Source of the DNA: Candidatus Eiseniibacteriota bacterium
GTDB taxonomy: Bacteria; Eisenbacteria; RBG-16-71-46; CAIMUX01
Assembly (NCBI GenBank): GCA_046327845.1
Contig: JAXLXQ010000018.1
Location: forward strand, 1,085-65,084
DNA: 64,000 bases
Direction of reading: 5' to 3'
Shown here: piece by piece, positions 6,210 through 37,325 of the stretch
Position numbering within the stretch: the stretch's first letter is position 1
Layout of the letters: each line of letters starts with the position of its first letter
Notes under the pieces: model-generated
Told to the model about the DNA's origin: nothing
The model's input: the letters and a program-made list of their open reading frames with translations, nothing else
Databases searched by the model: none
Translations under genes and position numbers: made by a program

Positions 6210-6444
6210 CTGCCCCCCCAATCTCTCGTGCGGTAGAGATGTGCGTCGCGACCTCGCGGCTGCGGCGTCGCGGCGTGCTGCTTCGGGCGTCGGGGGGACC
6301 CGGTTCGCGATCGCGCGGGGTGCTGGAGAACCCTGTGCTTTCGCCTGCAATCAGTCTATGGACTCTCGCGCGCTGTCGACAGCGCCAAGTTACGGGCCAT
6401 CCGAGGGGCGCGCGGCTCGTCATCGCCCCCCGAGCGGCCGCGGC
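6210..6444 (-). repeat. Conserved structured intergenic cassette, copy B
   Basis: Same four elements as copy A: perfect 16-bp palindrome GCGCTGTCGACAGCGC at 6370-6385, GGGG-TGCTGGAGAA-CCC hairpin near 6313-6338, ATCTCT-CGTGCGGT-AGAGAT at 6221-6240, and an imperfect post-stop GC hairpin near 6403-6436. Confidence 0.75.
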
Positions 6445-9744: not shown

Positions 9745-9883
9745 CTCTCCTCCCCTCTCTAGTGCGGTAGAGATTGCAGCCAGGCGGAGCGTGCTCCGTG
9801 ATGGCGCCGGGTCGGTGGGGGGACCGGACTCGCGGTCGGCCCTGGGTGCTGGAGAGAACCCAGGGCCTCCGCGTGGGACTAGC
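9745..9883 (-). repeat. Conserved intergenic cassette, copy C (shortened; two of the four hairpins)
   Basis: TCTCTAGTGCGGTAGAGA at 9756-9774 next to the SD. Perfect 8-bp hairpin CCCTGGGT-GCTGGAGAGA-ACCCAGGG at 9840-9865 with the same loop sequence as copies A and B but a changed stem. It lies about 20 nt after the gdh stop. Confidence 0.7.
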
Positions 9884-11236
9884 TTACGGCCAGATGCCGC
9901 GCTCCTTGTACACCTTTTCGAGGCGACGCAGCGCGACGACGTAGGCGGCGGTCCGCCAGTCGACGTTGAACTCCTTGGCCGCGTCACGGACGCGGAGGTA
10001 GCCGCCCGGCTGTCCCTCTTCGCCGATGATCACGTCCTTGAGCTTGGTCACGACGTCGTTCAGCTTCCAGTACTCGCTGCGCTTGTTCTGCAGCCACTCG
10101 AAGTAGCTCACGATCACGCCGCCCGAGTTGCACAGGATGTCCGGGATGACGTCGATCTTCCGGCTCCACAGGATCTCGTCACCGTCCGGATCGGTCGGAC
10201 CATTCGCACCCTCGGCCACCAGCTTCACGTCGAGCTTCTTCGCGGTCTCGTTCGTGATCTGATTCTCGAGCGCCGCCGGGACGAAGATGTCGGCGCGGGT
10301 CGCGAGGAAGGTGGCCTTGTCGACCTCCTTGAGGCCGGGGAATCCCTTCACTCCGGCCGGACCCATGGCCCGCGCCTTCTCCTCCTGACGAGCCTTGCGC
10401 AGATCTTCGCGCTCCTTGTTCTGGCGATCGATGTGCTCGATCAAAGCGTCGGGATCGACGCCATCGGGCGCGACGAAGTGTCCGGTGACGTCGGCCACGG
10501 CGACGAGCTTCGCGCCGTGCGGCTTCATCAACTTCGCGGTCCACGAACCGACGTTGCCGAAGCCCTGAACGAAGTAGGTCGAACCTTTGAGATCGAACTT
10601 CTTGTCCTTGGCCCACTGCTCGATCGAATAGACCACGCCCTGACCGGTGGCGCGATCGCGCCCGAGGCTTCCACCCGACTCGATCGGCTTGCCGGTCACG
10701 ACGTGCATGCAGCGCGCGCGCTCGTGCGTGGGCTGCATCAGCAGGTAGGTGTCGAGGATCCAAGCCATGATCTGCGCGTTGGTGTTCACGTCCGGCGCGG
10801 GAATGTCGTATTCCGGGCCGATGACGTTGCCGAGCGCGTAGGTGAAGCGACGCGAGATGTGCTCCAACTCACGGAAGGACACTTCGCGCGGATCGAAGGT
10901 GATGCCACCCTTGGCGCCGCCGAAGGGGATCTCGTTGATCGCGGACTTCCAGGTCATCCACGAAGCGAGCGCCCGCACCTCGTTGATGTCGACTTCCGGA
11001 TGGAAGCGCAGCCCACCCTTGTACGGACCGAGCACGTTGTTGTGTTGTACACGGTACCCGGTGAACATCCGCACCTGACCGTTGTCCATCTCCACCGGGA
11101 AATTGACGATGGTCTCGGTGTTGGTCTTGTTCAGAATTACGCGGACGTCGGGGTCGAGCCCCATTTTCTCCGCGGCTTTGTTGAATTGGCGCTCGACTGA
11201 TTTGTAGACGTTGTATTCGTTCGGCGTGCTGGCCAT
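9884..11236 (-). CDS. gdhA: NAD(P)-specific glutamate dehydrogenase (Glu/Leu/Phe/Val dehydrogenase family)
   Basis: VQHNNVLGPYKGGLRFHPEVDINEVRALASWMTWKSAINEIPFGGAKGGI is the classic GDH active-site region. Rossmann motif GFGNVGSW. Start moved to MASTPNEY (11236), which has an AAGGAGG SD 9 nt upstream. Confidence 0.95.
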   Translation of the reverse strand: MASTPNEYNVYKSVERQFNKAAEKMGLDPDVRVILNKTNTETIVNFPVEMDNGQVRMFTGYRVQHNNVLGPYKGGLRFHPEVDINEVRALASWMTWKSAINEIPFGGAKGGITFDPREVSFRELEHISRRFTYALGNVIGPEYDIPAPDVNTNAQIMAWILDTYLLMQPTHERARCMHVVTGKPIESGGSLGRDRATGQGVVYSIEQWAKDKKFDLKGSTYFVQGFGNVGSWTAKLMKPHGAKLVAVADVTGHFVAPDGVDPDALIEHIDRQNKEREDLRKARQEEKARAMGPAGVKGFPGLKEVDKATFLATRADIFVPAALENQITNETAKKLDVKLVAEGANGPTDPDGDEILWSRKIDVIPDILCNSGGVIVSYFEWLQNKRSEYWKLNDVVTKLKDVIIGEEGQPGGYLRVRDAAKEFNVDWRTAAYVVALRRLEKVYKERGIWP

Positions 11237-11651: not shown

Positions 11652-12182
11652 ATGGCGGACGGGAACCTCGAGCAGTCGGGGAAGGGCAACGAACGACTGG
11701 CCGCCTGGACCACCGAACTCTTCCGATTCGGCGACCCCTTCCGCGGCTCGCGCGACGAGGCGGTCTCCCTCCTCCGGCAGCGGCACTTCCTGGAGCAGGA
11801 CCGCTGGGCCTGTCGGGACCTGCTCGCAGCAGTCGCACCGGGACGCAAGCTGGCCCGCGCGACCGGTCGGCAGATCGAGGACTGGGTCGCGCACGCCCTC
11901 ACCCGTGACCTCGTCCGGTTGGTCATCCCTCAACCCGTCGAGGTTCCGAGCCCCCAGCGCCGGAGGCGGCCGGACCCGGGGCCGACCGCCAGCGGCTCCG
12001 CTTCGGACAATTCCTATCGGCCGGCCGATAACGCCGAGCTCGACCTGTCGGCCGACGGTGGCGACGAGGTCGGGCTGACCGTCGGGGTGGAGGCAGAGGA
12101 ACCGCCGGCCGTCGGCGCCGACGTGAATCATGATCCTCCCCCGGGGGTCGCCGGCGAGGCGACCGTCGTGGCAAAACGCTGA
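11652..12182 (+). CDS. Hypothetical protein (176 aa)
   Basis: Strong third-position GC bias in this frame. GGGGGTAGG SD before the ATG. Sits 45 nt upstream of the metallopeptidase-like gene. No recognisable domain. Confidence 0.45.
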   Translation: MADGNLEQSGKGNERLAAWTTELFRFGDPFRGSRDEAVSLLRQRHFLEQDRWACRDLLAAVAPGRKLARATGRQIEDWVAHALTRDLVRLVIPQPVEVPSPQRRRRPDPGPTASGSASDNSYRPADNAELDLSADGGDEVGLTVGVEAEEPPAVGADVNHDPPPGVAGEATVVAKR

Positions 12183-12227
12183 ATTGAGTAACGCCCGACG
12201 TCGATCGGCTCGGGTGAGCAGGGAGCG

Positions 12228-14706
12228 ATGAGCGAGAACGTCTTCGAGGAATCGGTACTCAAGCTCAAGGTCGGAGTCACCGCGGGAAGTGTGGTGGATG
12301 GCAAGGGAGACTATGTCTTCCTGAAGAATGGATCCGAGATCGAGCGCAAGCCGGGCACCTTGACCAAGGCCCAGGAGTTCACGCTCGACTACCCCACCGC
12401 GAAGGTGGACGACGACAAGGACAACTACCTCCTTCAGTACTACGTCGACGCCGAGCTCAAGACCGCCCACGGCACGACTTTCAAGAAGAAGACCAAGGTC
12501 CTCGACACCGTGGTCTGGCCGCAGAAGATCAAACTCAAAGCATTGGAAGACGCTTCGGGCGCCAATGCCGCCGGCTTCAAATTCAAGATCAAGCAGGACG
12601 GCGCCAACGACCACGACGACAAGACCGCGGCCGACGGCACGGTCGAGGTGGATCTCCAGAAGCCGGCCGCCTACACCATCGAGGCGATCCCCCCGTGGGA
12701 GATCAAGTCGTGGACCAAGGACAAGGGGCGGAACCGCGAGGTCAAGGTCATCCGCCACTTCACCGCCAAGATCCTGAACCCTGTCGCCATCGCGCCGATC
12801 AAGCAGTGGGTCAACCTCGACACGACGCAGGATGGCCGTGACGCCAAGGGAAGCGTGGTCAAGATCGAGGTCGGGGTCAGCGAGGACGTCGGCAAGGCGG
12901 AGGACGATCGCATCGGCCGCGCCGACGACCCCATCTTCATCGAGGTCAACTTCAGCCGCGCGAGCAAACGCAACCTGCCGAAGCCGGAACTCAAGGATGC
13001 CGACGCGATCGCGGAGGCAGACGCGAGGAAGAAGTTCACCGGCCAGGTGAAGCTAGGCCCCAAGGAGCGCGTCCAAGACCTTCACCGTCGAGCTCGGTTT
13101 GGCGGGCGGCGACACCTGCACGGTCAAGGTCGGCAGCACGAACGCCTGCGCGGATCACTCCATCACCTTTGCGAACTGGCGGAAGCTCTACTACGAGCTG
13201 ATGTATCCGGACTTCATGACCGCCTCGCTGGAAGAGATCAACCTCCCCGACGGATCGAAGGTGTACGACATCCCGCAGGCGATCAAAGCGTCGATCGACG
13301 CCAAGCTCGCGCCGACTCATCTCGTGTATGAGCGGCTCCTTTCGCTCGTGTTTCCGGCGGCCAGCGCCCACGCGGCGACCCGCTATCCCGGGGCCTACCT
13401 CAAGCAGCCCGGCCGCGAGCGATTAGTGCTCGGTTCGGAGCTGGCCAAGGCGGCGCACGATCCGGTGGCCTTCACCGCGCCGCACGAGCCCCGCTGCGTG
13501 CACATCCGCATGTGCGATCGGATTTCGAAATTCGACGGCGACTTCGCGGCGAAGACGTCGCCGGACCTGACGGCGGTGGCCACCAACATCGCCCTCGGTA
13601 CGAAGGCCTACTACCTCACCTCTCCGGATGACGCGTCGGCGGGCGTGGACGTGACCGGCTGCGATTGGACCGCGAAGGTCGACCCGGCGGCCTGCATGAA
13701 GGACGTCGCACTGGTGATCGCCAATCCACTCGCTCCGGACACTGCAGGGGCCGCCGAGGGAACGGTCACGCTGACCGAGACGGTGCAGAACATCTCGACC
13801 GATCTCCTCTTCCCGAAGCCGCTCCTCTCGCACTTCGCGACCGACCTGGACGCGGGGTTGGAGACCCTGCTCGATCAGTTCGTGCAGAACATCTTGGCCG
13901 ACACCGCGGCCGTGCGTCGAAACGGCCTGCGGGTCAACGTTCGAATCAAGTCACTGACCGGGAACGACCGTCGCACCCGCCGCGTCGCCAACGTGGTCGC
14001 CGCGCTCAACGCGCGCTTCACACCCGGCGCACAGCAAATCGCCGATCACCCGGGCCTGGATGACGCCGGCACGCCACGTACCGGCGCGGTGGCCCTCGCC
14101 TGGCTGTCCTTCGCCGACGTCAACACGGTGCGCATCACCCTGCCGACTCGCGCGAATCCGGCCGACCCGATCGAACCCGGGGACTTCGTGGGTGCGCTCG
14201 GCGCCAACACCTGCCCCATCTCGGTCGAGTACCAGGTGCGCCCGCACAAGGGGGTCAACGGCTCTTCGTCCCGCGGGAAGGGACGGCACACGATGAACCT
14301 CCGGCCGGGTGCGGACGCCGGGGCGGTCGCGACCACCTTCTGCCACGAGCTTGGGCACAACCAGGGAATGACCAACATGGATGGCCGCTCGAAGATCCCG
14401 CCCGGCTGCGACCCGGCGCTCCACGTCGACAACGGAGGGGTCTACTACCTGAACGGCACACCGGTGGGCGGCGGGCTGCGCAACTGCCATCAAGGTCCGC
14501 ACTGCGCCACGGGCGTCGGCAACATCGCGGCTCCCGCGTACTCGGGCGCGAACGTCGGCACCTGCATCCTCTTCGGCTCGGGCGGCGACGTCGACACGCG
14601 ACCGAACTTCTGCCCGGTCTGCACCGGCTACATCCAGGCGCGCAAGCTGACCGACATCGTCAAGCTGTGGACCGACGCGGAACGACCGAATGCCGTGGAC
14701 TTCTAG
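12228..14706 (+). CDS. HExxH zinc-metallopeptidase-like protein (~825 aa if joined), no signal peptide; interrupted by one frameshift near 13055-13080
   Basis: Track ORFs 12228..13331 and 13099..14706 share coding character. The second frame is open back to a TAG at 13054-13056 and reads ...SKTFTVELGLAGGDTCTVKV. The first frame reads ...FTGQVKLGPKE. C-terminal FCHELGHNQGM motif is followed by a Cys-rich tail (CHQGPHC, CILFG, FCPVCTGY). The N-terminus is Lys-rich and beta-rich. Confidence 0.6.
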
Positions 14707-18797: not shown

Positions 18798-18813
18798 CTG
18801 GCCCGACGCTTGC
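18798..18813 (+). promoter_or_regulatory. Sigma54 (-24/-12) promoter candidate
   Basis: TGGCCCGACGCTTGCC versus consensus TGGCACG-N4-TTGCW (10 of 12 defined positions, correct GG-N10-GC spacing). Located 52 nt upstream of the ATG at 18865. An NtrC-type activator is encoded in the same operon. Confidence 0.6.
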
Positions 18814-18864: not shown

Positions 18865-19662
18865 ATGAAAAGCGAATCAGGAGGCCAGGCCTCGAGCGTC
18901 CCTCCCGCCAAGTGCGTCTGGATGGAGGCGGGAGTGGTCGACTATCGGCTCTGCGATCGCGACCTCGATTGCGAGGATTGTCCCTTCGATCGCGGCATGC
19001 GCCCGAGTGGGACGCGCGCCACGCCGATCGCGCCGGGTCACTCGAGCGAGGACTCGCTGCAGGTGCGCGGACTGCGCTTTCCGCGCGATCGATTCTATGA
19101 CCGCCATCACATGTGGGCGCGCGTCGAGGCGGGCGCACGGGTCCGGGTGGGACTCGACGCCTTGGCGGTGTCGCTCCTCGTGCAGAATCACGGCGTGCAT
19201 CCCCCGTCCGCGGAGCAGCGGGTCGGGCCGGGTCACGCGTCGTGGGAAGTGATCGGTCGCGCCGGGCTTCTGCGCCTCGGCTCGCCGGTGGTGGGTCGCG
19301 TGACCGAGGTGAACCGCAGCCTGCTCACCTCTCCGCGCCAACTGCTGCGCGACCCCTACGGCACGGGTTGGGTGTTCACCGTCACGCCGTCCCGCCTGCA
19401 GGCCGATCTTTCGAGCCTGCACCACGGCGACGAGTGCGCCCCTTGGATCGAAGAGGAGATCGACCAGGCGCTGCTCGCGTGGAGCGAGGCAGTGGCCGCG
19501 GACGATCCCTCGTTGACTCCGGTAATGGCCGACGGCGGTCGTTGGGACGGCGAAGGGCTGTTGCACCTGACCCGTCGTCAGCACCGCTCGCTTATACAAA
19601 GGACTCTCAGGCTCGGGCTCGGCGCGCCGCAGGACGGCTCGCACCCGGCGGAAAGGAGGTAA
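18865..19662 (+). CDS. GcvH-fold protein with N-terminal 4-Cys motif; lipoyl-lysine apparently absent
   Basis: YDRHHMWARVE...VGLDALA...SPVVGRVTEVN...DPYGTGWVF follows the glycine-cleavage H fold. When anchored on APVSGEIVAVN of E. coli GcvH, the lipoyl-Lys position aligns to Ala or Arg. N-terminus: CVWMEAGVVDYRLCDRDLDCEDCPFD. AGAGGTG SD. Confidence 0.7.
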   Translation: MKSESGGQASSVPPAKCVWMEAGVVDYRLCDRDLDCEDCPFDRGMRPSGTRATPIAPGHSSEDSLQVRGLRFPRDRFYDRHHMWARVEAGARVRVGLDALAVSLLVQNHGVHPPSAEQRVGPGHASWEVIGRAGLLRLGSPVVGRVTEVNRSLLTSPRQLLRDPYGTGWVFTVTPSRLQADLSSLHHGDECAPWIEEEIDQALLAWSEAVAADDPSLTPVMADGGRWDGEGLLHLTRRQHRSLIQRTLRLGLGAPQDGSHPAERR

Positions 19663-19666
19663 GACC

Positions 19667-20356
19667 ATGGTCGCCCTCCTCGTGGTGTGCACGATTCTCA
19701 TGCTTCTGGGTGTCGATCTGGTGGTGCAGGCGGTGGAGCGGAAGCGTCATCCAGTGGCGGCCGCAGCTCGAACCTTGCCGGCATTGACCCGCGGCCTTTG
19801 GCAGCGCGTGGTGCCGCAGGGAATGTTCCTCGATAGCGGTCACGCCACCGCCACGCTCGAATCCTCGGGTCGCGTGCGGGTGAGCGTCGATCAACTGGTG
19901 CTGGCGGCGATCGGCAAGATCGACCGCATCGAGACCTTGGCGCTCGGCGCGAAGGTGAAGCGCGGGCAGCCGATCTTGCGGCTCCACCGCGGCGACGAGG
20001 CGCTTCAAATCAACGCCCCGGCCAGCGGCACCATCCGCGACTGGAACACCTCGGTGATGAAGGATCCGGCGCTCGTCTACCAGCGCCTCTACACGCCCGA
20101 CGGCTGGATGCTCGAACTCGAGACCGAGCGCCTCGAGGAAGAGCTGCCTCTTTGGAAGATCGCGAAGGACACCGGCCGGTGGATGGCCGACGAGATCAAT
20201 CGCCTTCGCCTCTTCGCGGCCGAAGGGATCTTCTCCGGAACGCCCGAGGCGGTGCTCGCCGACGGCGGCAACCCGGTCGAAGGCTTCCTCGCCGAGACCG
20301 ACAAGACCGGGTGGGACCGGTTCAATCAAGAGTTTCTGCGCTCAGCCAGGAGGTGA
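19667..20356 (+). CDS. Membrane-anchored GcvH-fold protein; lipoyl-lysine absent
   Basis: N-terminal TM helix MVALLVVCTILMLLGVDLVV. GcvH-like core: GQPILRLHRGDEALQINAPASGTIRDWN...YTPDGWMLELE. Asp occupies the Lys position. Confidence 0.65.
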   Translation: MVALLVVCTILMLLGVDLVVQAVERKRHPVAAAARTLPALTRGLWQRVVPQGMFLDSGHATATLESSGRVRVSVDQLVLAAIGKIDRIETLALGAKVKRGQPILRLHRGDEALQINAPASGTIRDWNTSVMKDPALVYQRLYTPDGWMLELETERLEEELPLWKIAKDTGRWMADEINRLRLFAAEGIFSGTPEAVLADGGNPVEGFLAETDKTGWDRFNQEFLRSARR

Positions 20357-20362
20357 GCCGCT

Positions 20363-21184
20363 ATGCCGTACGCGATGCTGATCGACGTCACGCGCTGTGT
20401 GGGTTGTGGTCAATGCCGTGACGCCTGCCAAGCGGAGAACAAGCAGCCGACGAGCGACGCCGAGACCTTGAACTTCGAGCGCTTCAGCGTGGTGCAGACG
20501 CGCAGTTTCGACGGCGCTGAAGTCGAAGGGCGCAAGATCGAGGGCGGCGAGCGCTACGTTCGCCGGATGTGCATGCACTGCAAGGAGCCGGCCTGCGCCA
20601 GCGTTTGCCCGGTTGGGGCGCTGCACAAGACGTCGGACGGCCCGGTGCTCTACGACCCCGACAAGTGCATGGGCTGCCGCTATTGCATGGTGGCTTGCCC
20701 CTTCGGGGTCCCGACCTACGAGTGGAGCAGTCGCACGCCGCGCATCCGCAAGTGCTTCTTCTGTACTTCTCGCATCGCCAAGGGTCAGAAGACCGCGTGT
20801 GCCGAGGCCTGTCCGGTCGAAGCGACCAGCTTTGGCACGCGGGAAGAAATGCTGGCCGAAGCGCATCGTCGGATCGAGGAGTCGCCCGACACCTACGTGC
20901 ACACCGTCTACGGCGAGCACGAGGCGGGCGGCACGTCGGTCCTTTATCTCTCCGACATTCCATTCGAGAAGCTCGGGCTGCCGGTCGGGGTCCCGGAGGA
21001 ACCGCTGCCTGGCCTGACCTTCCGTGTGCTCGAGAAGATCCCGTCGGTGAGCACGCTTTGGGGAACGATGCTCGCCGGCACCTGGTGGGTCGTCCATCGT
21101 CGGATGACCTTGGCCGAGAACGCGGCGGACGCACACGGCTCGGCGCGGTCGACTGAACGGGAGGAAGGGAGGACGGGACGATGA
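20363..21184 (+). CDS. 4x[4Fe-4S] ferredoxin-type subunit (HybA/NrfC/DmsB family) with C-terminal TM anchor and no Tat signal
   Basis: CVGCGQCRDAC, CMHCKEPACASVCP, CMGCRYCMVACP and CFFC...CAEACP. Starts directly MPYAMLIDVTRC without an RR leader. C-terminal helix TLWGTMLAGTWWVV. Confidence 0.85.
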   Translation: MPYAMLIDVTRCVGCGQCRDACQAENKQPTSDAETLNFERFSVVQTRSFDGAEVEGRKIEGGERYVRRMCMHCKEPACASVCPVGALHKTSDGPVLYDPDKCMGCRYCMVACPFGVPTYEWSSRTPRIRKCFFCTSRIAKGQKTACAEACPVEATSFGTREEMLAEAHRRIEESPDTYVHTVYGEHEAGGTSVLYLSDIPFEKLGLPVGVPEEPLPGLTFRVLEKIPSVSTLWGTMLAGTWWVVHRRMTLAENAADAHGSARSTEREEGRTGR

Positions 21185-22422
21185 AACCGCGCGTGACCTT
21201 CTGGCGAGTCGTGCTCCTCTTGGTACTGACGGCAGGACTGGTGGCGACCGTCGCCCGCTTCGTGCGGGGCTTAGGCGGATCGACCCACCTGTCCGACGCG
21301 TTCCCTTGGGGCCTCTGGATCGGCTTCGACATCCTGTGCGGAGTGGGCCTCGCGGCCGGCGGCTTCACGCTGACCGCCGCGGTGCACATCTTCAACATCA
21401 AGAAGTTCAAGCCGGTCGTGCGGCCCGCGATCTTGACCGCGTTTCTCGGCTACCTGCTCGTGGTCTTCGCGCTGATCTTCGACTTGGGCAAGCCGTGGAA
21501 TATCTGGCACCCGCTCGTGATGTGGAATCCGCACTCGGTGATGTTCGAGGTCGCCTGGTGCGTGACGCTCTACACCATGGTGCTGGGGCTCGAGTTCAGC
21601 CCGATGCTGTGGGAGAAGCTCGGCTGGACAAAGGTGAAGAAGGTAGTGAGCAGCGTGACGCCGGTGCTCGTGATCTTCGGCGTGATGCTCTCGACCCTCC
21701 ACCAGTCCTCGCTCGGCAGCCTGTTTCTGATCGCGCCGGGCAAGCTCCACCCGCTCTGGTACAGCCCGTGGCTGCCGGTCTTCTTCTTCCTCTCGTCGAT
21801 CGCGGTCGGCTGCGCGATGGTGATCTTCGAGTCGTTCCTCAGTCGCCGCGCCTTTGGGCACTCGGTCGAGTTCCCCCTGCTGGTCGACCTCGGACGCGTG
21901 GCGTTGATCGTGTTGATCCTCTACTCGGAGCTGCGCTTCTTGGACCTCAAGGCGCGCGGCGCGCTCTCCTACGTCAACTTCCGCACGGAGGAGGGGAGCC
22001 TCTTCCTCGCGGAGATCTTCCTGGGCGTGGCGGTGCCGGTGTTCCTGCTCGCGATCCCGAAGATCCGGCAGCGGCAGGGCGGGCTCTTCGCCGCGGCCAC
22101 ATTCATCGTACTTGGATTCGTTCTCAACCGACTGAACGTGGGCCTCACCGGTCTTCAAGCGTCGTCGGGTGTCCGATATATACCTTCGTGGATGGAGATC
22201 GCGGTGACCACGTCGCTGGTCGGCGCAGGATTCGCGATCTTCGCGCTTGCCGTTCGGCACTTGCCGGTGTTTGCTGAAGAAGTCCACAGCGCCCGTCCTC
22301 CCCGGCCAATGAAGGCGGACGCTTCATCCGGAGTCGTGCCATGCGATCGCGCGCGCTGGGTTTGGCCGGGAAGCTCGCCGGAGGCCTCAGCCTCGGCCTC
22401 CTTCTCTCGTTCGGCGGACTAG
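21181..22422 (+). CDS. Integral membrane quinone-interacting subunit (NrfD/HybB/PsrC family)
   Basis: ATGA overlap with the preceding gene. FPWGLWIGFDILCGVGLAAGG and about 10 predicted TM helices, typical of HybB/NrfD. Confidence 0.8.
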   Translation: MKPRVTFWRVVLLLVLTAGLVATVARFVRGLGGSTHLSDAFPWGLWIGFDILCGVGLAAGGFTLTAAVHIFNIKKFKPVVRPAILTAFLGYLLVVFALIFDLGKPWNIWHPLVMWNPHSVMFEVAWCVTLYTMVLGLEFSPMLWEKLGWTKVKKVVSSVTPVLVIFGVMLSTLHQSSLGSLFLIAPGKLHPLWYSPWLPVFFFLSSIAVGCAMVIFESFLSRRAFGHSVEFPLLVDLGRVALIVLILYSELRFLDLKARGALSYVNFRTEEGSLFLAEIFLGVAVPVFLLAIPKIRQRQGGLFAAATFIVLGFVLNRLNVGLTGLQASSGVRYIPSWMEIAVTTSLVGAGFAIFALAVRHLPVFAEEVHSARPPRPMKADASSGVVPCDRARWVWPGSSPEASASASFSRSAD

Positions 22423-24013
22423 GCTTAGTCCACCTTCGCATTCAACGATCGCACCTCGAAGCAAGCATCCTTCAAAACGCGGCGCGGATCAGCGACATCA
22501 TTCGCCGATCCGCGCACGACTTGATGCTGCGGAACGATGTTGAAGGCTTATACAGGATGATTCGGACGATCGGGACCGAACCCGGTCTGTCCAAGATCCG
22601 AGTCTTCAATGCCGCCGGCCGGGTCTCCTACTCGACCGACTCGCTCGAAGTCGGCGTGGTGGTCGATCGGAAGGCTGAGGCCTGCATCGGTTGCCACGAG
22701 AACGACGGGCCGAGCAGCACGCTGCCGGAGACGGCACGCTCGCGATACCTTCGCGCGGCGGACGGCAGCCGAGTTCTCGCCCTCACCCAACCGATCCGAA
22801 ACGAGCCGGCCTGCTCCGAGGCTGACTGCCACGCCCACCCGCGCGAACGCCAGATCCTGGGCGTGCTCGACACCCAGCTTTCCCTCGCCGACCTCGATCG
22901 CCAGGCCCGCGCCATGACCCGCGCGCTCGCGGTGTGGCTGTCGATCTCGCTTGCGCTGGTCATCGTGCTGTCGATCGCGTTCCTCGAGGGGTTGGTGCTC
23001 CGGCCAATCGGCAAGCTGCGCGCCATGACCAACCGCATCGCCCGCGGAGATCTCGATCACGAAATCAAGGTCGAAACGCAGGATGAGCTGGGCGAGCTGG
23101 CCGGCGCGTTCAATCGCATGACCGGCGAACTCAAGGAGGCGCGTCACGAGTTGACCGAGTGGGGTCGTCGACTGGAGCTGCGCGTCGAGGAAAAGACGAA
23201 GGAGCTGGAGCGCGCGCACGAGCACGTCATTCGAGTCGAACGGATGGCGTCGATCGGCAAGCTGGCGGCGATCGTCGCGCACGAGATCAACAATCCGCTC
23301 GCGGGCATTCGGACCTACGCGCTCCTGCTGCAGCGTCGCGCCCAGCGAGAGGCCGCCGCGCGCGCTGCCGAGGAGACTGCAGGCGCCGGCGCCACCGCCG
23401 CGCCCGCAAACGGCGGCGATGCTCCCGACATCCTCGGCACCATCGCGAGCGAGGCCGGGCGTCTCGGCGACATCGTCCGGAATCTCCTGCAGTTCTCTCG
23501 GCCCTCGCCGCTCAAGGTGGCGCCGCAGACCGCCGCCGAGATCGCGCAACGCGCCGTGCGCTTGGTCCAGCACCAGATTGACCTGCAGAACGTGGAGCTG
23601 GTCCTGGATGTCGATCCCACCGTCGGCGAAATCCAGTGCGACGGCGCGCAGATCCAACAGGCCTTGATCGCGCTCCTCATGAATGCGCTGGAGGCGATGC
23701 GAGAAGGCGGTCGACTCGAACTCACCGTCCGATCGGCCGGCGACCAGGTCGAGATCCGAGTCGGCGACAACGGCATCGGCATGGATCCGGGCACGCTGGC
23801 CCACGTCTACGAACCGTTCTTCACCACCAAGGAGTCAACCTCGGCCAATGGACTCGGATTGGCCGTGGTCTACGGCATCGTCACGCGCCATCACGGAACG
23901 ATCGCGATCGATTCGGCGCCGATGCGAGGCACCACCGTCACCATGCTGCTGCCTCGCAGCGTGCAAGAGGCGAAGGACGCGCCGAGCGCGAGCCCTGAGA
24001 AGGAGGAACCGAA

Positions 24014-24038
<25 letters not shown>
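22341..24038 (+). CDS. Sensor histidine kinase with periplasmic c-type heme sensor domain, HAMP, HisKA and HATPase
   Basis: Between TM1 and TM2: CIGCH (CxxCH) and CSEADCH (Cx4CH). HAMP: DELGELAGAFNRM. H-box: AHEINNPLAGI. G-boxes: DNGIGM and GLGLAVVYG. The 5' end overlaps the previous ORF by 82 nt, so the start is uncertain. Confidence 0.8.
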
Positions 24039-25500
<1,462 letters not shown>

Positions 25501-25507
25501 GGGCGCC

Positions 25508-26068
25508 GTGCCCGGACGTATTTGGATCGCGCCCTTCTCTGGGGTCGACGCTGCCTGGCTCGACTACCTACGCGTCGCGCTCGAGGAGGAGCTCGGCGTC
25601 GTGCCGCGGATGCTGCCCGAACTGGATGCGTCGAGTGCCTATGATCTGGGACGCGGGCAGACCAACGCCGGCGTCCTCCTGCGCTTGCTCTTGGAGAATC
25701 TGCCGCCGGTCGACGGCGAATCGTGGCGGCGCGTGATCGGCATCGCGAGCGAGGATCTCTTTGCGCCGGTCTTGAGCTTCGTCTTCGGACAGGCGCAGCT
25801 CGGCGGCGAGGCCGCGATCGTCAGCGCGCACCGACTCGACGAGGCTCGCTACGGACTGCCGCCCGATCCGGAGCTGCTACTCGTGCGACTGGAGAAGGAG
25901 GTGTGGCACGAGCTGGGGCACACCTTCGGGCTCCGGCACTGCCACCGAAATGGGTGCGTGATGCGCTTCTCGAGCGAGGTCGAGGAGGTGGATCAGAAGC
26001 AGGCGCGGTATTGCGAGGAGTGTGCGGCCGCGATTCGGCGGTTTGGGGTGGAGTTGGTGAACGTGTAG
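25508..26068 (+). CDS. amzA: Archaemetzincin-family zinc peptidase (M54)
   Basis: HELGHTFGLRHC followed by CVM and CEEC zinc-ribbon cysteines. Size about 186 aa. GTG start. Confidence 0.85.
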   Translation: MPGRIWIAPFSGVDAAWLDYLRVALEEELGVVPRMLPELDASSAYDLGRGQTNAGVLLRLLLENLPPVDGESWRRVIGIASEDLFAPVLSFVFGQAQLGGEAAIVSAHRLDEARYGLPPDPELLLVRLEKEVWHELGHTFGLRHCHRNGCVMRFSSEVEEVDQKQARYCEECAAAIRRFGVELVNV

Positions 26069-26084: not shown

Positions 26085-27515
26085 TCACCGACGCCGCGTC
26101 ATCACCAGGAGAAAGCCAAAGTCTCGATCGACCGCGAACTCACTCCGGATGCGCTGCCTCACTGAAGCGGGCAAGAGTCGAAAGTGGTCATCGACAATCA
26201 CCGCACGAACGCGAGGGTCATCTAGCACCCCGAGTAGTTCGCTCTCGAGTTTCCCTGGTGGCAGGAGTCGGATCACATCGGAGTTGAGGAAGAAGTAGCG
26301 ATAAGCCGGCAGGCGCGTGAGGTACAGGCCGGACCAGAGGTCGAGCACGCGGTCCTCGGGGCGCGTCGCGCGGAGCACCGTGCGCAGCACCTCGACTTCG
26401 ACTCCCTGGCGCTGCACCGGAAGCAGCGCGACGCAGGGCGGCACGAGCAGCGCCAGGGGGAGCGCGACCCGGAAGGCGACGCCGCGGAACGACGCCCCGA
26501 TCGCAAGCACGACGCGGTGGCTGGCCCATGCAGCGGTGATGGCGAGCGCCGGCAGCACGAAGAGGAAGTATTGCCGCAGCGGCGCGTTCATCAGGAAGAA
26601 GCCGGCCAGCGCCGCGAGCAAGCTGCACGGGATCATCGTTCGCGGCGGACACTCGGGGAGCACTTCGCGTGAGCGCAGCAGTTGCCCGACGCCGATCGCG
26701 CCCAGCACCCAGGTCACAGGGTTGGCCTTCAGGATCGCCCCGCCCAAGAGCCCCCACCGCGTGCCCCACGGATCGTCGATCGTCATGTGGGCCGACGTTC
26801 CGATGCAGTCGTGCCAGAAGCCGCGAAGCGCCCCGGTCGAGGCGAGGACCGCGAGGATCATGGACGAGACGATGGCCCCGCCCAGGAGAGTCCACACGAT
26901 CGGCGCGGCCGCAGCGAAGCTCTTGGAGTCGCGCGCTCGATCGGAGAGAAGTCTGCCGAAGAGCGCACCGACAGCGGCGAAGAGCGCCTTGGGCGTGAAG
27001 AAGAGTGCGAGTCCGAAGGCAACGCCGGCTGCGCTCCACGCCACGCGCCCGCGTCGCGCAAGCAACCAGATCCCGAGCAGCAGGAAGAAGGCTCCGGGCA
27101 CGTCGGGCCGCACCTCCACTCCCTTCTCGAAGAAGTAGGCGGAGGTGAGGAGGAGGAGAGGCGCCAACAGCGCGCCGGTCACTCCGGCCAATCGCCTGGT
27201 CACGAGCGCGGTGATGAGGAGGATGCCCAGGCACGGCGCGAGCATCGCCCAGCGCGCCGCGCGGATGAGCGGCTCGGCGCCGAGCCCGCTTCGCGCGAGC
27301 GGCTGGAGCGACCAGTAGAGGAGCGGCGGGTGATTCTCGAAGAGCGAACCGTAGAGCGACTCGCCGTGCGCGACGGCGTAGGCCGCATTCAGGTGCTCCA
27401 ACTCATCGACATCGAGGAAGCGAGTCGGCGTGACCGAGATCCGAAAGGCGAGCGCGACCAGCAGAAAGGCTCCAAGAACCCACAACCAAGCGCGCTCGAG
27501 GCGGGTCACGTTCAT
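26085..27515 (-). CDS. GT-C fold glycosyltransferase (ArnT/PMT-like, polyprenyl-phosphate-sugar dependent), ~476 aa, polytopic
   Basis: Trimmed to MNVTRLERAWLWVLGAFLLV, which gives an ATGA overlap with the GT2 stop. DVDELEH acidic motif in the first periplasmic loop. About 11 TM helices followed by a soluble C-terminal domain. Confidence 0.7.
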   Translation of the reverse strand: MNVTRLERAWLWVLGAFLLVALAFRISVTPTRFLDVDELEHLNAAYAVAHGESLYGSLFENHPPLLYWSLQPLARSGLGAEPLIRAARWAMLAPCLGILLITALVTRRLAGVTGALLAPLLLLTSAYFFEKGVEVRPDVPGAFFLLLGIWLLARRGRVAWSAAGVAFGLALFFTPKALFAAVGALFGRLLSDRARDSKSFAAAAPIVWTLLGGAIVSSMILAVLASTGALRGFWHDCIGTSAHMTIDDPWGTRWGLLGGAILKANPVTWVLGAIGVGQLLRSREVLPECPPRTMIPCSLLAALAGFFLMNAPLRQYFLFVLPALAITAAWASHRVVLAIGASFRGVAFRVALPLALLVPPCVALLPVQRQGVEVEVLRTVLRATRPEDRVLDLWSGLYLTRLPAYRYFFLNSDVIRLLPPGKLESELLGVLDDPRVRAVIVDDHFRLLPASVRQRIRSEFAVDRDFGFLLVMTRRR

Positions 27516-28315
27516 CCTTGCGGCATATCCGACCGCCGCGCCGGGTCGCGCTCCACCACCTCGAGCCTTCGTCCGTCGGCGCGCAGAAAACGTGGCGTGT
27601 AGATGCCGAGGCGATCGAGGAAACCGCCCCACGATGCGCCGAGCACGCCCAATCCATAGCGCACGCTCCGCGCGAAGTTGATGCTCGAGGCTTCCGGGAA
27701 GTAGCGCGTCGGACAGGTGATCTCGCCGATGGTGTAGCCGCGGCGAATGATCTGCACCAGCATCTGGTTGTCGAAGACGAAGTCATCGGAGTTCTCGAGC
27801 AGCGGCAGGCTCTCGAGCACGCGCCGATGAAAGGCGCGAAAGCCGGTGTGGTACTCCGACAGCTTGTACTTCACGAGGAGGTTCTCGATCAGGGTGAGCG
27901 CGCGGTTCGAAACGTACTTGTACAACGGCATGCCGCCGGACAGCGCGCCCACGCCCAGGATCCTCGAACCGAGCACGACGTCGAACTGCCCTGTCGCGAT
28001 GAGCGACGCCATCGCGGTGACCAATCGCGGTGAGTATTGATAGTCCGGGTGGACCATCACCACGATCTCTTCGCCGCCGCGGAGCGCCTCGGCGTAGCAG
28101 GTCTTCTGGTTGCCGCCATAGCCGCGATTCACGGGGTGCAGAAAGGTGTCGATTCCCAACCGCCGCGCCACCTCGACGGTGGCATCGGCGCTCTGATCGT
28201 CGACCAGGATGACGCGATCGACGACGTCGTGCGGCAGCTCGCGATAGGTCTGCTCGAGCGTCTTCGCCGCGTTGTACGCCGGCATGACGACGCATACTCG
28301 GCAACCGTCGATCAC
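27512..28315 (-). CDS. GT2 family glycosyltransferase (polyprenyl-phosphate sugar synthase, DPM1/ArnC/GtrB-like)
   Basis: VVMPAYNAAKTL, ILVDDQSAD, NRGYGGNQK, HPDYQY. GTG start at 28315 chosen because GGGGGA lies 3 nt upstream and a 12-bp hairpin occupies 28401-28429. The track ORF extends to 28432. Confidence 0.8.
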   Translation of the reverse strand: MIDGCRVCVVMPAYNAAKTLEQTYRELPHDVVDRVILVDDQSADATVEVARRLGIDTFLHPVNRGYGGNQKTCYAEALRGGEEIVVMVHPDYQYSPRLVTAMASLIATGQFDVVLGSRILGVGALSGGMPLYKYVSNRALTLIENLLVKYKLSEYHTGFRAFHRRVLESLPLLENSDDFVFDNQMLVQIIRRGYTIGEITCPTRYFPEASSINFARSVRYGLGVLGASWGGFLDRLGIYTPRFLRADGRRLEVVERDPARRSDMPQG

Positions 28316-28400
28316 ACTTCCCCCTTGCGTAGGCGCCCGCGGTCGCCGCCCGCTCCTCCGCGGTGGCCCCGGTCGCGCGGAGGACATCGTAACAGGCGAA

Positions 28401-28429
28401 GCCCCGCCCGGGGTCATCCCGGGCGGGGC
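28401..28429 (-). terminator. Strong GC hairpin (12-bp stem, 5-nt loop) between the 42-heme cytochrome gene and the glycosyltransferase genes
   Basis: GCCCCGCCCGGG-GTCAT-CCCGGGCGGGGC. Starts about 40 nt after the cytochrome stop. No clear U-tract, so it may be a terminator, an attenuator or an mRNA-stabilising end. Confidence 0.45.
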
Positions 28430-28469
28430 CACTCTTCGGGCGCCCGCGTGCCTCCGACCTAGCGTGCCG

Positions 28470-31400
28470 CTAGTGGGCCGCCGTGTGGCACTGGATGCAC
28501 AGATCGCGACGTCGATCGGCTTGCAGCTGGAAGTCGAACTGCGAGGCGTGCGGGTTGTGGCACGACAGGCAGGTCAACGGGCCGTCGTTCCGAGGATCCT
28601 TGTACTGCGCGCCCAGGGGGTGCGTGTGCTTGGTTCCGTCGGCGTGGCAGGTCTGGCACAGCTCGTCGACGTTCGCCTTCAAGAGCTTCCCTTGATCGGC
28701 GCCGTGCGGCTGATGGCAGGAGCTACAGTCCGGCGTCTTGTTCAGGTGGCTCGACTTCCCCTGGAACATCGCCGGGTCATGGCAATTGCCGCAGACCGCG
28801 AGCTGTGAGCTGCTCTTCATCAGCGCCTTGCCGCTGCCGGCGTGCGGCGAGTGGCAGTTGAGGCACGCCTCGTCCTCGGTCATGGCCGGGTGCGTCACCG
28901 ACTTCGCCATCTCCTCCTTGATCTTGGGATGGCAGGTGGTGCACGCCTCCGGCCCCGTCGCCTTTCGCCCGCCGTTCGGGGTGTGGCAGGCCGCGCAGTT
29001 CCCCTGCGCGAAGGGCGGGTGAGTCGAGGCCTGCATGAGGTTGAGCTGCTTCGACGCGTGCGGGTCATGGCAGCTCAGACACGCGTCGGCCTCAAGCGCG
29101 TAGTTCTTGTGCTTCGCCTTGAGCGCGGGCGTGATCTGATGGCACGACTGGCAAAGCTCGCCCATCGGCTTCAAGAGTAGCGACTGCTCGCCGGAGCCGT
29201 GCGGGTTGTGGCAAGCCTGGCACTTGTCCTTCGCCACCGGGTCGTGCAGCTTCGCGCCCTCGAACGAGGCGACCAGATCCTTGTGACACTCACCGCAGAG
29301 CGCCTTCCCCTCCGCCTTCAGCAGCTTGGGATGGGTCGAGCGATGCGGATCGTGGCAGTCGCCGCACTTCCCTTCGGCCACCGGCGGATGGTGGACGCTC
29401 GCCCCCTCGGCGATGTCGGAGTGGCACTCCTTGCACAGATCCGGCTGCGCCTTCTGCAGCAGCTTGTCACGCTCGGAGGCGTGCGGGTTGTGGCAGATCA
29501 CGCACTCGCCGTCGGCAACCGGCGGATGCACCGACTCGCCGGCCGCGGCCGGCGCGGTGATGTCGGGATGGCAGGTGGCGCACTTCTCCGTCATCGAGCC
29601 GGTGAGCGGGCCCGGAGTGCCTTCGCCGTGACAGACCGCGCACTCGCCCGAATCGAATGGCGGGTGCCGCTTGGATGCGAGCAAGCCCTTCGACTCGGAC
29701 CCGTGCGGCTGATGGCAGCCGACGCAGTTGAGCTTCGCCAGCTCGGCTCCCTTGTGCTTCGCCTGGAGCGCAGGGTCGCTGGTGTCGTGACACTGCGCGC
29801 AGAGTTCGGTGGCAGCCGCGATCAGCATGCCGGGCGAGTCGCTGCCGTGGGCAACGTGGCAGGCAGTGCAGGCGCCGTCCCGTGCCGGCGGGTGCGCGGT
29901 GGGCAGGTTGATCGCCTTGGCGATGTCGGCGTGGCAGCTCAAGCAGGTCGCGCGCTCCGACGCGATCAGGAGGTGCGGCTCCTTGGATCCATGTCCACGG
30001 TGGCAGGAGTCGCAGCGCCCTTCCTTTACCGGCTCGTGCGGATTGGTCTTGGCCGCCGCCTGCTCCAGCACGTCGCCGTGGCACTCGCCGCACACTTCCT
30101 TCGCCTCGGCGCGCAGCCCGTTTTCCTTCTTACCAGAGTGCGGCGCGTGGCAGATCAGGCAGTCCTGATCGACGAAGCCTTGGTGCACGACCGGCAGGTT
30201 GCCCTGCGCGACCACGCCAGAGTGGCAACCCTTGCACAGGTCGGGGCTCTGCGCCTTCAGGAGGTGCGCCTGATCTCCGCCGTGCACCGTGTGGCAGGAG
30301 CCGCAATCGCCGCCGGCGAAGGGCGGGTGCGCGTACTCGTCGCCGCGAGCCGGTTCGGCATTCTCGTGACACTGCCCGCAGAGCTTTGCCTCGGGCGCGG
30401 CCAGCAGGTGGGGTTCATTGGAGAGGTGCGGGGCGTGGCAGTCGGTGCAGGCCATCGACTCGAGCGCGGGGTGCTTGACCGTGGCGTTGGTCGCGAGTGA
30501 GTCGATGTCGGCGTGGCACTGCTTGCAGGTTTCGCCGTTCTCCGCGCGAAGGAGACCACCGTGATCCGAGCCGTGGGGGTCGTGGCACTTCCCGCATTGA
30601 TCATCGTTGAACGGCGCGTGCACGGAGGCCACCGGGCTGGTCGGAATGAGCCCGTCGTGGCATTCGTTGCAAAGCTCCTTCACTTCCTTCTTGAGCACCG
30701 CCTCGGTCGTGCCCTTGTGCGGGTCGTGACAGGTGAGGCACTCCCCTTCGGCAGCAGGGGGATGCGGATGGGCGCGATCGCCGAGCTTCTCCAACTCGCC
30801 GTGACAGGTGGTGCAGAGTTCCGGCACCTGCGCCACGAGCGCTCCGCCGGTCGGGGTGGTGTGACAGGCCTCGCAGTTGCCCGTCCTGTACGGTTCGTGA
30901 CCGCCGGTCACGAGAAGCTGCTTCTCCCTGCTGCCGTGCGGCTCGTGGCAGGCGCCGCAGGGCGCTTGCTTCCACCCGTCGCCCGGGTGTTTGGCGGCGA
31001 GGGCGTCGCGTGACTTGCCGTGGCAGCTCAGGCAGAGCGCTTCCTCGTCCTGGTTGAGCAGCTTGGCCGTGGTGTTGCCGTGCACGGTGTGGCATGTGCC
31101 GCACTTCTCGCTCGAGGCCGGCGGATGCCCGCCCGCCGCGATCTTCTCTTTCACGTCCTCATGACAGGCAAGGCAGGAGAGATCGGCGTCGTAGCGACGG
31201 AGCAAGCCGTCGTCGGTCGAATTGTGAGGCGAGTGACAGACGAGGCAGTCGCCCCGCTCGGGCACGGGGTGGCCGGACTTCATCGCGCCGGTCGCGCTCT
31301 GCTCCGCGTGACAGCCGATGCAGAGGTCGGGCGGATTGGCCAGGAGAACGAGCTTTTGATCGAAGCCGTGACGCTTGTGACAGGCCTCGCACTTTCCGTC

Positions 31401-31574
31401 CGCCACCGGCTTGTGCTCGGTACCGGCCTTGTAGCGCTCGACCGCGTCAGCGTGGCAGTCGACGCACTCGCGCCCGCCCTTCGACTTCGACGCGGAAAGG
31501 CTGGACGCCGCCGGCCAGAGCGCGGCGATCGAGACGAGAGCCGCGATCGAGAACAGCTTCGCGGCGCGTTTCAT
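28470..31574 (-). CDS. Giant multiheme c-type cytochrome, 42 CxxCH motifs, built from ~21 tandem diheme (paired-CxxCH) repeats; Sec signal peptide
   Basis: I counted 42 CxxCH motifs in 1034 aa (one per ~25 aa). Recurring unit: HPP-x-G-x-C-xx-CH-x-PH-x(5-8)-LL-x(6-10)-LC-xx-CH. N-terminus: MKRAAKLFSIAALVSIAALWPAASS. Confidence 0.95.
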   Translation of the reverse strand: MKRAAKLFSIAALVSIAALWPAASSLSASKSKGGRECVDCHADAVERYKAGTEHKPVADGKCEACHKRHGFDQKLVLLANPPDLCIGCHAEQSATGAMKSGHPVPERGDCLVCHSPHNSTDDGLLRRYDADLSCLACHEDVKEKIAAGGHPPASSEKCGTCHTVHGNTTAKLLNQDEEALCLSCHGKSRDALAAKHPGDGWKQAPCGACHEPHGSREKQLLVTGGHEPYRTGNCEACHTTPTGGALVAQVPELCTTCHGELEKLGDRAHPHPPAAEGECLTCHDPHKGTTEAVLKKEVKELCNECHDGLIPTSPVASVHAPFNDDQCGKCHDPHGSDHGGLLRAENGETCKQCHADIDSLATNATVKHPALESMACTDCHAPHLSNEPHLLAAPEAKLCGQCHENAEPARGDEYAHPPFAGGDCGSCHTVHGGDQAHLLKAQSPDLCKGCHSGVVAQGNLPVVHQGFVDQDCLICHAPHSGKKENGLRAEAKEVCGECHGDVLEQAAAKTNPHEPVKEGRCDSCHRGHGSKEPHLLIASERATCLSCHADIAKAINLPTAHPPARDGACTACHVAHGSDSPGMLIAAATELCAQCHDTSDPALQAKHKGAELAKLNCVGCHQPHGSESKGLLASKRHPPFDSGECAVCHGEGTPGPLTGSMTEKCATCHPDITAPAAAGESVHPPVADGECVICHNPHASERDKLLQKAQPDLCKECHSDIAEGASVHHPPVAEGKCGDCHDPHRSTHPKLLKAEGKALCGECHKDLVASFEGAKLHDPVAKDKCQACHNPHGSGEQSLLLKPMGELCQSCHQITPALKAKHKNYALEADACLSCHDPHASKQLNLMQASTHPPFAQGNCAACHTPNGGRKATGPEACTTCHPKIKEEMAKSVTHPAMTEDEACLNCHSPHAGSGKALMKSSSQLAVCGNCHDPAMFQGKSSHLNKTPDCSSCHQPHGADQGKLLKANVDELCQTCHADGTKHTHPLGAQYKDPRNDGPLTCLSCHNPHASQFDFQLQADRRRDLCIQCHTAAH

Positions 31575-36103: not shown

Positions 36104-36135
36104 CGTCCTTGTCTCCTCACCGCCCCTAGTGACTT

Positions 36136-36167
36136 GGGGCACGGCTGCGCGATGCGCCCCGTGCCCC
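36136..36167 (-). other. GC-rich hairpin in the OmcS-like / heptaheme intergenic region
   Basis: GGGGCACGG...CCGTGCCCC with an inner GCGC-GAT-GCGC extension. Lies about 35 nt upstream of the next start codon. Confidence 0.4.
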
Positions 36168-36240
36168 TCGTCTCTTCGTCCTCAGCCCTGCCGCCTTCCC
36201 CAGGGTCGCCGGGCGCTGGCGGCCGGAGCGAGTCGGAACG

Positions 36241-36266
36241 GCTCGCGCCGCCTACGCGGCGCGAGC
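36241..36266 (-). terminator. Perfect 10-bp hairpin immediately after the OmcS-like gene
   Basis: GCTCGCGCCG-CCTACG-CGGCGCGAGC, 10 nt after the TAG at 36277-36279. No U-tract. Confidence 0.5.
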
Positions 36267-36276
36267 GTCTATCCTA

Positions 36277-37281: not shown

Positions 37282-37325
37282 GTCAATCCTCACTTTCGGT
37301 ACGTCTTGGGGCGCCGAAACTACCG

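Follow-up and report, generated by a model that had tools for sequence, protein, structure and literature searches.

A predicted sigma54-dependent operon joining an NrfD-type iron-sulfur/membrane pair and two GcvH-fold proteins without lipoyl-lysine to a sensor histidine kinase: a candidate redox sensor in Candidatus Eiseniibacteriota

Few quinone-interacting units of anaerobic respiration are as widespread as the NrfD-type modules. In the Hmc complex of Desulfovibrio (HmcB/HmcC), as in Nhc and Qrc, a four-cluster ferredoxin with a C-terminal membrane anchor is combined with a 10-helix NrfD-type subunit, and the pair is partnered by cytochromes, not by a catalytic molybdo- or Ni-enzyme. In a review of the NrfD family, a catalytic or cytochrome partner is present throughout (PMC8076601). 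Here, a pair of this kind is described from a 64-kb stretch of contig JAXLXQ010000018.1 (hereafter, the window) of a Candidatus Eiseniibacteriota bacterium, with a set of partners and a leaderless state of the iron-sulfur subunit that the same review does not describe. The pair is encoded by the third and fourth of four adjacent genes, termed A to D, whose co-directional and tightly packed open reading frames (ORFs) at 18865-22422 had been singled out in an initial annotation; both their coordinates and their composition were reproduced. Judged by sequence, C and D are an NrfCD pair of the Hmc/Hyb branch, and the four genes stand at the 5' end of a seven-gene, predicted sigma54-dependent operon that continues with genes for a histidine kinase, a response regulator, and an archaemetzincin (peptidase M54). 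The operon is tentatively read here as encoding a kinase-coupled, periplasmic NrfCD redox sensor with cytoplasmic, non-lipoylated GcvH-fold accessories. Its features are the following.

18799-18813, forward strand: sigma54-type promoter element, -24 TGGC/-12 TTGC (TGGCCCGACGCTTGC), 52 nucleotides upstream of the start of A.
18865-19662, forward strand: A, 265 residues, soluble; Cys4 module, GcvH-fold core without lipoyl-Lys, long helix, ADGG tail.
19667-20356, forward strand: B, 229 residues; N-terminal transmembrane helix, GcvH fold without lipoyl-Lys, ADGG tail.
20363-21184, forward strand: C, 273 residues; HybA/HmcB-like with four [4Fe-4S] clusters, leaderless, C-terminal transmembrane anchor followed by HRR.
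21181-22422, forward strand: D, 413 residues; 10-helix NrfD family protein of the HybB/HmcC type, predicted to have its N-terminus inside; ATGA overlap with the stop codon of C.
22341-24038, forward strand: sensor histidine kinase; first transmembrane helix, putative periplasmic Cache-type sensor with CIGCH and CSEADCH, second transmembrane helix, HAMP, HisKA, HATPase.
24014-25500, forward strand: NtrC-type sigma54-dependent response regulator; REC, AAA+, HTH_8; reading frame broken.
25508-26068, forward strand: archaemetzincin (peptidase M54), the last gene of the cluster; HELGHTFGLRH motif and Cys4 site intact.

Related loci were collected in a species-dereplicated search (one genome per species) with an alignment of the A family, which yielded 124 loci; the seven window proteins were mapped on the best 80 of these, and the distribution was extended by a search with protein C and by gene-context look-ups. 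A profile search with the A family found 489 representatives (50% identity clusters) at E <= 1e-30. Mining of gene neighborhoods for the block showed that the arrangement recurs in many independent genomes, that is, beyond chance, and that the clusters are of three types. Type I has the order B-C-D-kinase-regulator-M54 with a leaderless C, and A is optional, standing either in front, as in the window, or after D. Its hosts, as labelled, include Ca. Eisenbacteria, Acidobacteriota, Ignavibacteriales, Kryptoniota, Bacteroidota, Planctomycetota, Krumholzibacteria, Zixibacteria, and others; the closest relatives of the window cluster (62-82% identity) are from Ca. Eisenbacteria. Type II has the order B'-C-D-B''-A'-kinase-regulator-M54, and its C carries a twin-arginine translocation (Tat) leader. 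Type III, represented by about 60 loci of Desulfobacterales and Desulfatiglandales, consists of kinase-regulator-M54, a sigma54 promoter, and then an A with two Cys motifs, with no B, C, or D nearby. The cluster was also found in Gemmatimonadota. A stays with kinase-regulator-M54 where C and D are absent, B occurs only with C and D, and the archaemetzincin is present in nearly all related loci. Additionally, the genes for D and the kinase overlap or abut across clusters; in the window, the start codon of the kinase, as placed by an alignment of orthologs, lies 82 nucleotides inside the 3' end of D (22341-22422), and the C-terminal tail of D runs past the end of Escherichia coli HybB. It should be noted that, in one type I locus (12129-13985 of GCA_003427375.1), a 618-residue Fer4 and CCG protein resembling HdrD/HmcF replaces the archaemetzincin after the regulator.

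The promoter element is the sole conserved upstream block common to the window and its two closest orthologous loci. In 63 of 79 loci, an element of this type stands approximately 115-160 nucleotides ahead of the Cys motif of A, and type II clusters have one before their first gene. The window alone shows no enrichment of the pattern (3 matches, 1.6 expected); the evidence for a sigma54 promoter is its conserved position across loci. Of the two genes that end the operon, the archaemetzincin scores 147.3 bits against NF033823 (cut-off 145) and 98.5 bits against the Pfam model, with its zinc motif and Cys site conserved as HELGHTFGLRHC...C...C..C. The regulator, compared with an ortholog of 76% identity, has at least three frame changes at about 24770-24985, in the AAA+ domain; the remaining six genes of the operon are intact.

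Kinases that adjoin C and D carry, between two transmembrane helices, a CxxCH motif and, about 43 residues further on, a Cx4CH motif. The 18 listed loci whose kinase has both motifs all carry C and D, save a truncated contig and one hybrid kinase considered below. The approximately 60 Desulfobacterota kinases that occur without C and D have neither motif and are PAS-PAS-GAF proteins of the cytoplasm. The type of kinase sensor thus co-varies with the presence of C and D. Both motifs are invariant in 20 of 20 aligned sensors, and 11 of the 20 match Pfam Mcp40H-20_sensor (PF21563), which describes the haem c sensor of Geobacter chemoreceptors, at a best E value of 4.7e-7. Covalent binding of haem c is already established for a group of Cache sensors (bioRxiv 10.64898/2026.02.01.703092). 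As in the sCache_haem proteins GSU0582, GSU0935, and Tll0287, the sensor would be a periplasmic Cache/PAS-like domain with a conserved CxxCH placed upstream of HAMP modules; unlike them, kinases of the window type add the invariant Cx4CH, and a co-encoded NrfCD pair has not been reported for sCache_haem proteins. The initial annotation, citing the position of the block beside a cytochrome locus, had offered it either as an electron entry point or as a redox-sensing accessory. The second idea agrees with the finding that the block is strictly linked to genes for a histidine kinase and a sigma54 regulator. The adjacency to a cytochrome locus did not hold up, in that it is not conserved and most related loci have no nearby cytochrome gene; in the window itself, the nearest multihaem gene is 6 kb away from the block, beyond two glycosyltransferase genes.

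The assignment of C and D to the Hmc/Hyb branch follows from profile matches. C starts with MPYAMLIDVTRCVGCGQC, 6 nucleotides past the stop codon of B and with an AGGAGG ribosome-binding site ahead, and its cluster-binding Cys motifs begin at C12, C70, C102, and C131 (Pfam Fer4_11, 5.5e-21). Its NCBIfam matches are HmcB (1.6e-78, 264 bits; equivalog cut-off 420) and HybA (5.7e-65, 219.5 bits; cut-off 263), and its best match among solved structures is FdnH (PDB 1KQF chain B, 6.8e-31). D has ten hydrophobic segments and scores 92 bits against Pfam NrfD (cut-off 25.8); its best NCBIfam match is HmcC (2e-108, 363 bits; cut-off 550), followed by HybB (1.4e-88, 297.9 bits; cut-off 450), and no sequence match to D was found among solved structures. 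Because the equivalog scores are below their cut-offs, C and D are taken to be relatives, not orthologs, of the named subunits. Compared with E. coli hydrogenase-2, D aligns with HybB over its full length with 122 identical columns and an equal loop charge pattern, and C has the same four clusters as HybA and, like it, a transmembrane helix followed by an RR tail. Unlike in hydrogenase-2, there are no hydrogenase genes (hybO/hybC) in the operon, and the Tat leader of about 40 residues of HybA is missing from C. Similarly, the operon differs from Hmc in lacking genes for HmcA, HmcD, HmcE, and HmcF, in the missing export leader of C, and in its partners, which are GcvH-fold proteins, a sensor kinase, a sigma54 regulator, and an archaemetzincin.

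The claim of the initial annotation that C has no Tat leader was borne out. The HmcB and HybA models align to C only from model positions 37 and 40, which indicates that the leader part is absent, and a search for a better start found none: the stop codon of B is 6 nucleotides upstream, and since the ORF listing gives the longest frame of each ORF, there is no upstream start for C. Among the 120 best homologs of C (90% identity clusters), the first cluster lies within 20 residues of the N-terminus in 116, a twin-arginine motif was found in none, and a dibasic motif follows the anchor helix in 112. From the missing leader it had been concluded that the iron-sulfur module faces the cytoplasm, but the charge bias and conserved residues of D, the anchor of C, and sister clusters with a Tat-exported C weigh against it. 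Summed over both termini and the even loops, 16 orthologs of D have 13-19 Lys and Arg residues; the odd loops have 4-9. For D of the window the count is 19 in cytoplasmic loops and termini against 8 in periplasmic loops, and for the aligned E. coli HybB, 14 against 5; the pattern does not differ between leaderless and Tat-leader clusters. Further, in 19 D sequences conservation is highest in the periplasmic (odd) loops 1, 3, and 5 (0.75-0.82, against 0.47-0.58 for cytoplasmic loops), and the residues equivalent to R89, Y99, E148, and H184 of HybB are invariant (19/19). Replacement of these four residues in HybB impairs hydrogen oxidation (PMC8076601). The anchor of C, in turn, is followed by HRR or KRR and a charged tail of 13-45 residues, the HybA counterpart being LVRRNTKND; since basic residues follow the anchor, the tail is predicted to be inside and the iron-sulfur domain outside. 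Finally, C of the orthologous type II clusters carries a classic Tat leader, for example MKRRDLLKLFGAAAG, and the GcvH-like partners are kept. The retention of A/B-type proteins, predicted to be cytoplasmic, beside a Tat-exported C implies that they need not share a compartment with it.

Taken on these grounds, it is probable, at a moderate level of confidence, that the iron-sulfur domain of C is periplasmic and docked on the periplasmic face of D, which is the arrangement of every close relative. The model put forward initially, in which a cytoplasmic iron-sulfur domain of C, on a quinone-interacting D, would pass electrons to the Cys4 module of A, to B, or to both, is improbable by comparison. 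It would account directly for the leaderless C here and in the 120 closest homolog clusters, for a window and operon with no Tat-signal partner, and for a predicted cytoplasmic location of A and B, with four invariant Cys in A. It also has a precedent: SoeABC is the sole NrfD-family complex thought to face the cytoplasm, and its peripheral subunits, proposed to be cytoplasmic, are without signals (PMC8076601). SoeC, with 8 helices, is expected to be inverted in the membrane (PMC8076601); D, with 10 helices, is not inverted but oriented as HybB, and no molybdopterin subunit is encoded. The Lys/Arg bias that D shares with HybB and with its Tat-leader sister clusters, the conserved surface and HybB-type residues of D on a periplasmic-side architecture, the HRR/KRR motifs and charged tails after the anchor of C, and the type II clusters that keep A/B-type proteins despite a Tat-exported C all speak against a cytoplasmic C. 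Moreover, from what is known of the family, electrons cannot pass from one side to the other of a D without cofactors (PMC8076601).

A periplasmic C raises the question of how it would be exported. A useful comparison is FdnH, likewise a four-cluster protein anchored by a C-terminal transmembrane helix. Although leaderless, it reaches the periplasm by Tat hitchhiking with FdnG. The missing leader of C is therefore not decisive on its own. Unlike C, FdnH has an adjacent partner with a Tat signal, and it docks on the cytochrome b FdnI and not on an NrfD-type subunit. The result is an export paradox, with a leaderless C that all topology signals nonetheless place outside. Its outcome may be Tat hitchhiking with an unlinked partner, an unknown targeting route, or an NrfD-type subunit that takes its iron-sulfur partner on the opposite face. 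Two fused forms of C and D were also encountered. A leaderless fusion of 646 residues was rejected as an assembly frameshift, since its anchor region is out-of-frame sequence. In a Gemmatimonadaceae metagenome-assembled genome (MAG; locus L084, 8932-12406), a single ORF encodes C joined to D, in that order, with a Tat leader and with the anchor helix retained; a gene for a multihaem cytochrome c follows the fusion directly, B is absent, and the kinase and regulator are divergent.

GcvH of the glycine cleavage system, LbpA of sulfur-oxidizing Hdr-like systems, and GcvH-L share with A and B the barrel-sandwich fold. A and B match Pfam GCV_H with 42.8 and 40.4 bits (cut-off 22.2), and fall below the GcvH equivalog models TIGR00527 and NF002270 (39.8 and 53.1 bits for A, 30.3 and 33.6 for B, against cut-offs of 115.85 and 117). 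An AlphaFold2 model of A, based on an alignment of 107 members of the A family, has a mean predicted local distance difference test (pLDDT) score of 82, and most of residues 64-250 exceed 90. The modeled parts are a GcvH core, the long helix at 188-213, a loop bearing the conserved ADGG, and two short helices. A Foldseek search with this model matched GcvH structures alone (target-normalized TM-score 0.88-0.91), and nothing matched the N- or C-terminal extensions. In the translation of A the Cys motif reads C17-x12-C30-x5-C36-x2-C39. Across the 107 homologs, there is little or no variation at these four Cys or at D223-G224-G225. The loss of the lipoyl-lysine, reported in the initial annotation, was confirmed in HMMER alignments with solved GcvH structures, where an Ala of A (EVIGRAGLL) and an Asp of B (LHRGDEALQ) stand opposite the Lys of ESVKTAS. 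Across the A family the lipoyl column holds R in 84 members, G in 10, H in 8, A in 4, and D in 1, and Lys in none; in the B family, no hairpin Lys is conserved. Judged from these alignments, A and B cannot carry lipoate. Besides lacking the lipoyl-lysine, A and B differ from GcvH, LbpA, and GcvH-L by the extra long helix, the ADGG tail, and a Cys4 module (A) or transmembrane anchor (B). No genes for GcvT, GcvP, or lipoate attachment adjoin A or B among the inspected loci, and neither a lipoate ligase gene nor Hdr genes lie near them. The NCBIfam family GcvH_rel_desulf was considered as a home for A and B and rejected, because scores were far under its cut-off, including that of one Desulfatiglandales A. 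The A family also has a conserved Arg at or beside the former lipoyl position, and further core Cys are conserved at positions 126 (90/107) and 140 (53/107), both of which are Ser in A of the window.

Neither A nor B has a signal peptide. B is a membrane-anchored paralog of the A core, and the ADGG tail is common to both. It starts with the hydrophobic helix MVALLVVCTILMLLGVDLVV, followed by ERKRH; in every ortholog, the helix begins at residue 2 and a basic cluster comes directly after it. Because of this basic cluster, the helix is predicted to be oriented N-out/C-in with the GcvH-like domain in the cytoplasm, and both A and B are predicted to lie on the cytoplasmic side. The helix itself (residues 1-22; 19667-19730 of the window) is unusually conserved between phyla (MVALFVV.T..VF....D..V) and has, in all orthologs, an invariant acidic residue (Asp, rarely Glu) close to its cytoplasmic end, a pattern that suggests a specific intramembrane contact or a proton-sensitive site.

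The kinship of A and B, together with the type III loci, bears on a further explanation, modeled on PspA with PspF. In such a circuit, A would be under sigma54 control and would negatively regulate its own activator or kinase, B and the C/D pair would titrate A as membrane sensors, and the archaemetzincin would remove it. This scheme would suit the type III loci, about 60 in Desulfobacterota, where nothing but A stands behind a sigma54 promoter beside kinase-regulator-M54; it would also suit the nature of B as a membrane-tethered paralog of the A core with the same ADGG tail and the strict co-conservation of the protease. Its support is purely architectural; A is without similarity to PspA, and the regulator has a receiver domain and hence already a phosphorylation input. 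A Psp-like circuit is regarded as very improbable.

The favored, if tentative, reading is that of a redox sensor coupled to the kinase. D would be a cofactor-less, quinone-interacting 10-helix protein with the membrane orientation of E. coli HybB, and C would be a tail-anchored wire of four [4Fe-4S] clusters docking on its periplasmic face. The pair, which has no catalytic subunit, travels invariably with a HAMP kinase bearing putative haem c motifs. Electrons would equilibrate between the quinone pool (at D), the iron-sulfur wire of C, and the haem or haems of the kinase or periplasmic cytochromes touching them, and the output of the kinase would track the redox state of the quinone pool or the periplasm. 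The phosphorylated NtrC-type regulator would then activate the sigma54 promoter ahead of A, resulting in autoregulation and possibly acting on other targets, and A and B would act as adaptors or regulatory subunits, with the kinase, regulator, or protease as their target. We infer from gene linkage and sequence features that the components form a single complex, and likewise the path of electrons, the binding of haem, and the roles of A, B, and the archaemetzincin. A stronger version, in which the periplasmic haem or haems of the kinase are wired to the quinone pool via the iron-sulfur/NrfD pair and the system is a new class of multi-subunit redox sensor, is considered unlikely as it stands. 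In that version, the sensor domain of the kinase would replace the cytochrome subunit of Hmc, Nhc, and Qrc complexes, and the lipoate-less GcvH-fold proteins and the archaemetzincin would be the cytoplasmic signaling side; it implies that C reaches the periplasm with neither a signal peptide of its own nor a co-encoded Tat partner.

Several observations weigh against a sensor. If C were cytoplasmic, the proposed wire to a periplasmic haem would fail, and neither the operon nor the 64-kb window contains an ORF with a convincing N-terminal twin-arginine signal, nor is there an export signal on C in the 120 closest homolog clusters. The sensor of the window kinase scores 23.4 bits against PF21563, under the cut-off of 27, and its putative haem is read from the motifs. 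In a Syntrophobacteria MAG (locus L057, 939-3968), a kinase with the motifs occurs with no B, C, or D within 8 kb; this hybrid kinase of 1010 residues combines a periplasmic CxxCH/Cx4CH sensor with HAMP and PAS-PAS-GAF and adjoins regulator-M54-A. The frame changes in the window regulator may mean that it has decayed and that the system is possibly inactive in this genome, or may be local assembly indel errors. Additionally, a two-component system beside an NrfD-type enzyme can be a matter of mere transcriptional control, as with TtrSR and ttrBCA, where an NrfD-type respiratory module is encoded beside a dedicated two-component system. The Ttr system differs from the window operon in having a catalytic molybdoenzyme, separate transcription units, and a regulator that is not sigma54-dependent, and in having no GcvH-like or M54 genes.

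This last point leads to the main competing explanation, in which C and D, with B and A as accessories, are an ordinary Qrc/Nhc/Hmc-like quinone oxidoreductase that exchanges electrons with periplasmic cytochromes, either soluble or encoded elsewhere. The two-component system would then only regulate it, and the kinase haem would respond to these same redox carriers of the periplasm. That C and D match HmcB/HmcC and HybA/HybB best, and that D keeps the HybB functional residues, is as expected of such an enzyme, as are the multihaem cytochrome gene right after the Tat-leader C-D fusion of the Gemmatimonadaceae locus and the large multihaem cytochrome genes at 28-37 kb of the window. A sigma54 promoter ahead of the structural genes would make them regulated output, and A, as the only gene behind such a promoter in Desulfobacterota, is output-like there as well. 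An oxidoreductase fits less well with the majority of clusters, which have no cytochrome or catalytic subunit, with a kinase, regulator, and protease that are in the same transcription unit as the structural genes and overlap them, and with a kinase sensor type that changes with the presence of C and D. It also gives no role to A and B and leaves the persistence of A with kinase-regulator-M54 in loci without C and D unexplained. An ordinary oxidoreductase is thus a possible but somewhat unlikely account of the operon.

Other features of the window lie outside the operon. Two glycosyltransferase genes (26085-28432) separate it from a reverse-strand ORF of 1034 residues with 42 CxxCH motifs (28470-31574), a very large multihaem cytochrome that lies 2.4 kb past the operon end. 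Further on, at 34994-38525 on the reverse strand, two proteins with six CxxCH motifs each, with Paired_CXXCH_1 and MtrC/MtrF-like domain matches, are followed by an NHL-repeat protein, an arrangement that looks like an extracellular electron-transfer locus. Two proteins of approximately 1150-1180 residues and a subtilase (2889-9987, reverse strand, and 39576-41969, forward strand) all have a C-terminal FlgD Ig-like domain, which may be a shared C-terminal sorting or surface-attachment tag.

The statement that no named complex has this composition was upheld both in the literature searched and in scans of NCBIfam and Pfam, which include no curated model for A, B, or the cluster; a published survey of sigma54 regulons does not mention these genes. 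Existing annotations read "glycine cleavage system H", "formate dehydrogenase iron-sulfur subunit", and "4Fe-4S dicluster protein". The cluster is common across environmental phyla, yet no curated family or paper was found that names it. Its novelty is the pairing of an NrfD-type module with a sensor kinase, a sigma54 activator, a protease, and lipoate-less GcvH-fold proteins. Kinases that sense quinones are usually taken to do so by binding the quinone directly or through thiol chemistry. If the sensor reading is true, a hard-wired electron path would read the redox state of the quinone pool or the periplasm in these organisms.

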